This document shows, in pieces, positions 25,993 through 26,304 of a stretch of 64,000 nt of DNA (positions are counted from its first letter, which is position 1; every line of letters starts with the position of its first letter). Position numbers and translations under genes: made by a program. The DNA comes from Escherichia coli (lineage in GTDB: Bacteria; Pseudomonadota; Gammaproteobacteria; Enterobacterales; Enterobacteriaceae), in the NCBI RefSeq assembly GCF_003334785.1, contig NZ_QOWV01000006.1; one strand, given 5' to 3'. The notes under the pieces were generated by a model. That model did not search any database. It saw only the letters and a list, made by a program, of their open reading frames with translations, and had not been told where the DNA came from.

Positions 25993-26064
25993 GTGCAAGC
26001 AAAGTTGCTACTTTGGACATTAACAGCTTCAATAATGGTAATAATCTTATCTGAGGAGGGCGAA

Positions 26065-26304
26065 GTGGCGGAGCAATTAGAGTTCTTTCCCGTCCAGAGC
26101 CCGTGCCGGGGAATTTGCCAGTCTGACGAACGCGGGTTTTGTCGCGGCTGTTTTCGTAGTCGTGATGAGCGTTTTAACTGGAATAAAATGAGCGATGGCG
26201 AAAAACAAGAGGTGCTGCGCCTTTGTCGGCAGCGATTAATGCGCAAATTACGCGCAAATAAGCCAGCGTCATCAGACGAACCGGAGCAACCATCACTCTT
26301 TTGA
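26065..26304 (+). CDS. ydhL: Cys-rich DUF1289 small protein YdhL
   Basis: GTG start at 26065 with GAGGAGGG SD (26054-26061); 79 aa with CxxxC...CxxC cysteine cluster; divergent from nemR. Confidence 0.8.
   Translation: MAEQLEFFPVQSPCRGICQSDERGFCRGCFRSRDERFNWNKMSDGEKQEVLRLCRQRLMRKLRANKPASSDEPEQPSLF

Follow-up and report, generated by a model that had tools for sequence, protein, structure and literature searches.

Two short peptides at the ends of YdhL, a small protein of Escherichia coli, are more constrained than the cysteine-bearing core that they flank, and their motif recurs in the tails of long-tailed homologues. While ydhL and its family are already known (it is an annotated gene of unknown function), these two observations, drawn from comparison of orthologous and homologous sequences, are what is new here. 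On balance we favour, as the most likely mechanism, that YdhL is a small Cys4 metalloprotein which docks on a partner via its conserved terminal peptides. The fuller explanation we prefer overall, a constrained Cys4 protein with its own promoter, terminal docking peptides and a possible role at the sliding clamp, is put forward tentatively. All coordinates given below refer to the window, i.e. the whole stretch of 64,000 nucleotides of E. coli DNA that was analysed, and its features around ydhL are as follows.

25977-25992, no strand assigned: NemR-box palindrome TAGACCAGTCGGTCTA, an exact match, given as context and assigned to the nemR promoter
26005-26033, plus strand: promoter-like element of ydhL, TTGCTA (26005-26010), 17-nt spacer, TTCAAT (26028-26033)
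26053-26060, plus strand: Shine-Dalgarno sequence GAGGAGGG, 4 nt ahead of the GTG
26065-26304, plus strand: ydhL CDS, GTG start, 79 codons, TGA stop; same CDS in RefSeq
26074-26088, plus strand: N-terminal peptide Q4-L-E-F-F8, outside the Pfam model, which begins at residue 12
26098-26235, plus strand: DUF1289 domain, residues 12-57 (Pfam PF06945, E=3e-19)
26104-26151, plus strand: four-cysteine cluster C14, C18, C26, C29 within the DUF1289 domain
26194-26259, plus strand: long basic helix, residues 44-65, LRLCRQRLMRKLRANK region, from AlphaFold2 secondary structure
26254-26283, plus strand: fast-evolving linker, residues 64-73, from entropy and codon-position divergence
26287-26301, plus strand: C-terminal peptide Q75-P-S-L-F79, the last five residues, resembling a clamp-binding motif

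ydhL is a genuine gene with a conserved GTG start

The frame of ydhL opens with GTG at 26065-26067, closes with TGA at 26302-26304 and translates into 79 amino acids (VAEQLEFFPVQSPCRGICQSDERGFCRGCFRSRDERFNWNKMSDGEKQEVLRLCRQRLMRKLRANKPASSDEPEQPSLF). A preliminary description of this DNA had called the Shine-Dalgarno sequence, the GTG start and the 79-aa reading frame, and all three are present in the sequence, with an identical CDS in RefSeq under the name ydhL, 'DUF1289 domain-containing protein'. Using a 501-bp query at ≥95% identity, the ydhL region is found in 5426 of 5426 complete E. coli genomes. For comparison over longer distances we collected the ydhL locus from 80 Enterobacterales species, the profile search with a narrow alignment having returned Enterobacterales only. 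The protein is 79 aa long in 79 of these 80 species, it starts with GTG in 77 and with ATG in three, and a purine run of the GGAG/GGAGG type sits in the same place before the start in essentially all 80 orthologous loci. Pairwise divergence among 79 orthologues amounts to 0.185, 0.123 and 0.531 at codon positions 1, 2 and 3, and it is this excess at third positions (0.53 against 0.12-0.19 at the other two) which makes the coding signature of ydhL clear. The wider family counts 1316 members at E≤0.001 in a search of cluster representatives (50% identity). Hence ydhL is a genuine gene under constraint, and its product is a cytoplasmic protein of 79 residues. The notion that the frame arose by chance or is a pseudogene that yields no protein, for which we found no supporting point beyond the fact that very short genes can give artefact calls in TraDIS and other screens (PMC5821084), is already contradicted by these comparative data (presence in all E. 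coli genomes searched, length, start and stop kept in 79-80 of 80 species, a strong codon-position signature and the 1316 family representatives), and to our minds it can be dismissed.

Two longer versions of the frame were considered and rejected, one from an in-frame ATG at 26035 (89 aa) and one from an in-frame TTG at 25894 (136 aa) whose frame overlaps nemR; neither start is conserved across the orthologues. With neither start kept and the sequence upstream of the GTG quick to diverge, we read the longer database entries (87-136 aa, e.g. B7MA02) as over-extended start calls.

Four invariant cysteines form a probable metal site

YdhL matches PF06945 at E=3.1e-19 over model positions 1-46 of 47 (residues 12-57), and so do all 88 homologues that we aligned. 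The cysteine cluster lies within SPCRGICQSDERGFCRGCF, and eight residues are invariant in the 88-sequence family alignment: P13, C14, C18, C26, C29, R31, E35 and W39. Among 150 cluster representatives scanned, 133 carry the CX3CX7CX2C pattern; 10 show no motif of four cysteines and are apparently fragments or frameshifts. The basic helix is conserved, with R57 nearly invariant in the family alignment. In the AlphaFold2 model of YdhL, residues 11-60 reach pLDDT values of 89-93, with both termini at low confidence and devoid of secondary structure.

The preliminary description had also proposed that this cluster could bind a metal or an Fe-S centre and had named non-conservation of the cysteines as grounds for giving the idea up; with all four invariant family-wide, that check came out against refutation and conservation lends the metal-binding idea support. 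The four cysteines are probably a ligand set, from which we infer that they hold one metal centre. The small size of the knuckle makes a single Zn or Fe site look more probable than a cubane cluster. To our knowledge, CX3CX7CX2C corresponds to none of the classic ferredoxin, radical-SAM or Endo III cysteine patterns. The JGI label for DUF1289 reads 'predicted Fe-S protein YdhL (DUF1289 family)', where 'Fe-S' is a database prediction. Searches of structure, family and model databases yielded no DUF1289 member with a solved structure or known function, no solved structure with detectable sequence or fold similarity to YdhL, nothing above noise for YdhL in NCBIfam and, in a Pfam scan of the aligned members, no family other than DUF1289 that was consistently matched. 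Taken as one claim, that ydhL is a real gene whose product has a Cys4 metal site is, judging by conservation, very probable.

The terminal peptides are more constrained than the core

Both the N-terminus AEQLEFF and the final six residues, (E/Q)QP[STPE]LF, are nearly invariant among the 80 orthologues, and residues 64-73 between core and C-terminus vary freely. The C-terminal QP[STPE]LF is kept in all species but one, which has QSSLF. Mean column entropy is 0.17 bits for residues 1-10 and 0.41 for residues 74-79, compared with 1.97 for the linker (64-73) and 0.17-0.77 elsewhere. Divergence at codon position 2 follows the same course, being 0.006 for residues 2-10, 0.021 for residues 74-79 and 0.37 for residues 64-73, with third positions equally saturated; in the linker, values for the three positions are 0.44, 0.37 and 0.62. 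By this measure of codon substitution, both terminal peptides are shown to be under stronger purifying selection than the core.

The motif is not confined to Enterobacterales. In 106 of 138 family representatives, Q..[LMFI]F occurs no more than 14 residues before the first cysteine and mostly starts exactly 10 before it. At the C-terminal end, 43 of the 138 finish with Q..[LMFI]F and 6 with the hexapeptide Q..L.[LF] (QIRLPF, QLQLPF, QPELPF), and 22 more have internal copies only. Homologues of 140-240 aa combine the YdhL-type core with a long acidic tail of low complexity that contains 2-5 motif copies, such as repeated PQFDLF, QTSLF or QADLF and terminal DDQLDMFS or DQFDLF. Phe in these homologue tails falls within Q..[LMFI]F in 99 of 272 cases, where 3.8 would be expected from composition. 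Neither motif is present in more distant DUF1289 proteins, tandem-domain ones among them.

Several architectures may be recorded in this context. The long-tailed proteins P0147, P0158, P0161, P0166 and P0183 (loci L006, L088) reiterate Q-x-D/S-L/M-F. P0144 and P0220 join DUF1289 to hydrophobic segments, with a bacterial SH3-like domain at the C-terminus. Among P0199, P0235 and P0255 there are proteins with two tandem DUF1289 domains; another subset ends in an acidic aromatic ...DFxDFEL and has no QxxLF.

Because the termini are constrained, the linker drifts and the motif recurs in the tails of homologues, we read the terminal peptides as partner-docking motifs, an assignment that we judge somewhat better than evenly balanced.

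The beta sliding clamp as a candidate partner

Which partner might be docked on? Proteins that bind the beta sliding clamp use a consensus Q-L-x-L-F, often at their C-terminus (PMC4549789), and their motifs fall into pentapeptide and hexapeptide classes (bioRxiv 10.64898/2026.05.27.728225); in Hda, an N-terminal stretch, 6-QLSLPL-11, is bound in the clamp cleft (PMC5397184). QLEFF (4-8) and QPSLF (75-79) of YdhL resemble QLxLF or QLxLxL peptides placed in an accessible terminal or disordered segment, and they are conserved while their flanks diverge, as seen from the 80 species together with the family-wide enrichment and C-terminal placement of the motif.

For modelling, YdhL was fused to E. 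coli DnaN (its sequence verified against PDB 1MMI) as DnaN-(GS)15-YdhL and submitted to AlphaFold2 with an alignment of 16 diverse DnaN and 59 YdhL homologues in anchored rows. DnaN was predicted at pLDDT >90 and the YdhL core at 92-96. In this fusion, run without a positive control, coordinates or a multimer model, the last five YdhL residues had a pLDDT of 63 and residues 65-74 one of 69, compared with 61 for residues 71-79 of YdhL modelled alone, so that there was no gain in confidence at the motifs. As a prediction, the outcome speaks at most slightly against clamp binding. A literature search retrieved no paper linking ydhL to the sliding clamp.

Several further points weigh against the clamp. 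The near-fixed spacing between N-terminal motif and first cysteine, and retention of that motif in P0144 and P0220, suggest that this N-terminal element may be structural. Distant DUF1289 proteins are devoid of both motifs, which makes these a subfamily feature; QPSLF, with its Pro at position 2, does not conform to the QL consensus; and no gene for replication is a constant neighbour, the genomic surroundings being variable outside Enterobacterales. Also, the phenotypes discussed below stem from high-throughput screens of a 240-bp gene, in which polar effects on ydhF or nemR are possible. Our estimate, based on motif likeness, is that the terminal peptides of YdhL might bind the beta clamp, yet probably do not. 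We are similarly doubtful about the wider proposal that the YdhL subfamily comprises previously unrecognised small metal-binding clamp binders whose Cys4 centre, responding to metal or redox state, would modulate clamp occupancy under oxidative or quinolone stress. If true, it would explain why deletion of ydhL lowers fluoroquinolone survival and overexpression confers oxidant resistance (see below), bring a new type of small regulator into the well-studied circle of clamp partners and assign a function to DUF1289, a domain that is widespread and uncharacterised.

In passing, 519 'plasmid' records in PLSDB encode a DnaN homologue. Some of these are evidently whole chromosomes of 3.5-5 Mb (E. 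coli, Proteus, Aeromonas, Acinetobacter, Neisseria), and many large Pseudomonas and Citrobacter plasmids have a divergent dnaN of their own, at 22-30% identity.

Do the termini belong to the fold?

The main rival to the docking reading sees the termini as part of the fold or of a self-association surface, so that YdhL acts alone as a metal or redox protein or binds nucleic acid through its basic helix. The near-fixed distance of 10 residues between N-terminal motif and first cysteine would fit this, and so would the conservation of the basic helix, the missing confidence gain in the DnaN fusion model and the membrane-anchored DUF1289-TM-SH3b proteins P0144 and P0220, which keep the N-terminal motif and have no C-terminal one. 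Against it, both ends are unstructured and of low confidence in the model, between the core and the C-terminal motif runs a linker that varies in length and is not constrained, and reiteration of the motif up to five times in acidic low-complexity tails is typical of a short linear motif. We therefore regard structural termini as an unlikely explanation, albeit one to be taken seriously, and keep to docking as the preferred reading of the terminal peptides.

ydhL has its own promoter-like element, apart from the NemR box

In the window, as in RefSeq, nemR-nemA-gloA-rnt-lhr run opposite to ydhL, and ydhF-sodC share its strand. The preliminary description had placed a NemR-box palindrome across from ydhL and suggested on this ground that ydhL may be co-regulated with nemRA-gloA. 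The palindrome is there, at 25977-25992 with no mismatch, and we take it, as established knowledge, to be the NemR operator (Umezawa et al. 2008). In E. coli it lies within the 102-bp intergenic region, 72 nt ahead of the ydhL GTG, and it is conserved wherever nemR abuts ydhL. On the minus strand, this region reads CTTGCAC-TAGACCGACTGGTCTAC-TACACT-CCAACGC-ATG, and the box falls between TTGCAC (25998-25993) and TACACT (25975-25970), within their 17-nt spacer. As this places it inside the -35/-10 spacer of the putative nemR promoter, a classic position for an autorepressor, the box reads as a nemR operator.

ydhL, on the other hand, is preceded by a bipartite element of its own, which we infer from its conservation to be a promoter. 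It begins 13 nt past the NemR box and ends 31 nt before the GTG, with a predicted transcription start near 26040. Under a strict pattern it is found in 57 of 80 species, always with a 17-nt spacer; relaxed to CTTGC-N17-[TA]T[CG]A[ACT]T, again with exactly 17 nt, it is found in 75 of 80, whether or not a NemR box is present, and in 71 of these 75 it is located 24-32 nt before the start codon (consensus cTTGC-N17-TTCAAT). A generic sigma-70 scan of 25800-26500 called no promoter; it missed the ydhL element because the second hexamer has no A at position 2. Among candidates that we set aside, two terminator-like hairpins from a scan fall inside coding sequence and are probably due to chance, and a marbox (SoxS/MarA/Rob) reading of the upstream element does not fit in spacing, as judged by eye. 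Rfam over 25300-27300 gave chance-level matches only.

That the element does not follow nemR is borne out by gene order. In Enterobacter, Lelliottia, Cronobacter, Yersinia and Pantoea, nemR is located about 1.8 kb from ydhL and the ydhL element is kept; in Dickeya, Lonsdalea and Erwinia psidii, nemRA is missing, gloA directly abuts ydhL and the element is again kept. A NemR box is found ≤160 nt upstream of ydhL in only 28 of 80 species. Since its own element is kept with no nemR nearby, ydhL appears to be transcribed independently and its adjacency to the NemR box to be incidental. We conclude from this comparison of loci that ydhL has its own conserved promoter-like element, which would not depend on the neighbouring NemR operator.

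Of the displaced arrangements, that in Cronobacter (L005, 2168-3796) has an eptA-like phosphoethanolamine-transferase gene (PF08019/PF00884) between nemR and ydhL, and the gap in Enterobacter, Lelliottia, Yersinia and Pantoea (loci L026-L030, L035 and others) is similar in size, about 1.8 kb. Escherichia albertii and E. whittamii (L009, L011) have a different, longer nemR-ydhL spacer with neither a NemR box within 160 nt nor TTGC-N17-TTCAAT, which suggests local insertion or replacement.

The alternative that YdhL is an Fe-S or metal redox protein of the NemR response to electrophiles and bleach, co-regulated with nemRA-gloA via a shared box, can draw on the common 102-bp intergenic region in E. 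coli, on a screen in which overexpression of ydhL increased H2O2 and HOCl resistance and which also recovered gloA (PMC8228696), and on the proximity of gloA to the DUF1289 gene, which persists in distant gammaproteobacteria (L006, L088). Yet the box fills the spacer of the nemR promoter rather than covering a core promoter of ydhL (both promoters being predicted) and stops 13 nt short of the -35-like element of ydhL. Nor is linkage of ydhL to nemR and its operator conserved, nemR being displaced to about 1.8 kb or absent in many species in which the ydhL element persists. The methylglyoxal study that defined nemRA-gloA read-through makes no mention of ydhL (PMC3739934), and our literature search turned up no measurements of ydhL expression, be it in a nemR mutant or under NEM, methylglyoxal or HOCl. 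With the box in the nemR promoter spacer and the ydhL element kept in 75 of 80 species regardless, the co-regulation suggested earlier does not hold up well and we consider it improbable.

Three observations on this region may be added. First, the nemR promoter (25962-25998, minus strand) comprises TTGCAC, a 17-nt spacer with the box, TACACT and 7 nt to the ATG, with no visible Shine-Dalgarno; the latter, together with a -10 only 7 nt from the ATG, leads us to think that nemR mRNA may be leaderless or nearly so. Second, the -35 elements of nemR and ydhL are arranged back-to-back, 6 nt apart. Third, the sigma-54 ChIP-seq site IA14 (PMC4591121) corresponds to CTGGTTCAGTGTTTGCT at 25675-25691 (+), inside nemR and antisense to it; it points to ydhL, some 370 nt farther downstream, into which a sigma-54-dependent transcript could run.

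ydhF and the wider neighbourhood

In Enterobacterales the neighbourhood is gloA-(nemRA)-ydhL-ydhF-sodC, and ydhF starts about 50 nt past the ydhL stop in most species. Outside Enterobacterales, context was taken from five metagenome or genome contigs: two (L006, L088) show nth-gloA-methyltransferase-cspA-like-DUF1289, nth being the gene for endonuclease III, and in L007 and L089 the DUF1289 gene adjoins an ABC transporter. As no partner gene is consistently adjacent, ydhL looks monocistronic.

This bears on the idea that YdhL is an accessory factor for the aldo/keto reductase YdhF, encoded with it in a ydhL-ydhF operon. The short distance to ydhF and the pair staying together where nemR is displaced would agree with it, whereas around 14 of 80 species have no downstream ydhF, the more distant homologue loci do not have ydhF next to the gene, and a conserved TATACT-like box between ydhL and ydhF suggests that ydhF has a promoter of its own. 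We also know of no aldo/keto reductase that needs a metal-carrying partner, which we counted against the idea as well. All in all, such an operon-based role appears very improbable.

The box just mentioned, TTGCGTATACTC at 26313-26324, follows the stop of ydhL and precedes the start of ydhF; E. coli, Salmonella and Klebsiella have it in near-identical form, and Cronobacter has TATAAT at its position. It looks like the -10 box of a separate ydhF promoter, with no convincing -35 alongside. S5N7T4 in AFDB, a 394-aa 'putative aldo/keto reductase' of Salmonella bongori, has an N-terminus that matches YdhL and is probably a read-through or mis-annotated ydhL-ydhF fusion.

Published phenotypes of ydhL

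A link between YdhL and oxidants has some published support: ydhL, as an ASKA clone, is one of 27 genes recovered for resistance to H2O2 as well as to HOCl, and it ranks with the 20 strongest for H2O2 (PMC8228696). As for quinolones, survival of the Keio ydhL deletion under ciprofloxacin killing was <0.005%, compared with 0.31% for the wild type (PMC13131330, with uvrD, ruvA, recN, recG and holC in the same table as ydhL), and rifampin-induced ofloxacin persistence was lost in the Keio ydhL deletion as it was with recA, priA, ruvA and uvrD (PMC5845583). TraDIS scored ydhL as 'essential only by TraDIS' (PMC5821084), a call contradicted by the fact that a Keio mutant exists. The mRNA of ydhL can be detected, at a level about tenfold lower in a pcnB mutant (PMC5389530). 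These screen phenotypes fit a replication or repair role under stress and do not prove it, polar effects being possible.

A model for YdhL and its meaning

Putting these strands together, the following may be envisaged. In the compact DUF1289 core, the CX3CX7CX2C cysteines would form the probable metal site, followed by the long basic helix. The core would be flanked by QLEFF and QPSLF as docking peptides, with the drifting linker ahead of the C-terminal one. YdhL could then be a small metal-dependent and possibly redox-sensitive factor associated with the clamp, and might contribute to replication or repair during stress by oxidants or quinolones.

For a 'y' gene that is present in every E. 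coli, uncharacterised and recurrent in oxidant, fluoroquinolone-persistence and TraDIS screens with no mechanistic handle, the terminal peptides offer a concrete, testable lead on function. Its cysteines, start site and promoter-like element are shown to be conserved, and an adjacency to nemR that looks incidental removes a tempting but weak regulatory story.

Comparison with known systems

Among known systems, E. coli YdhL belongs to Pfam DUF1289 as its name-giving member, with a full-length HMM match and the four conserved cysteines, but the Pfam model covers neither the N-terminal QLEFF nor the C-terminal QxSLF. As both motifs are outside the model and absent from distant DUF1289 proteins, they would define a YdhL subfamily that is mainly gammaproteobacterial. 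With the NemR regulon, ydhL shares its divergent, adjacent position in E. coli, a common intergenic region and oxidant resistance on overexpression; it differs in that the box does not overlie the ydhL element and adjacency is not conserved.

Clamp partners, including Pol II, Pol IV, Pol III alpha, Hda and some transposases, carry terminal Q-x-x-(L/M)-F or Q-x-x-L-x-(L/F) motifs as does the YdhL family, and in both the motifs are set in a disordered context and conserved while flanks drift. Unlike these partners, YdhL lacks any enzymatic or DNA-processing domain; its E. coli form has Pro at the second motif position, and the protein would carry two motifs, with up to five in long-tailed homologues. 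Finally, the gyrase inhibitor YacG is a small Cys4 zinc-finger regulator of a DNA enzyme. Its cysteine spacing differs from that of YdhL, for which no similarity to solved structures was detectable, yet by way of analogy only the two are alike in size, in the four-cysteine knuckle, in an acidic disordered tail and in their connection with quinolone sensitivity.
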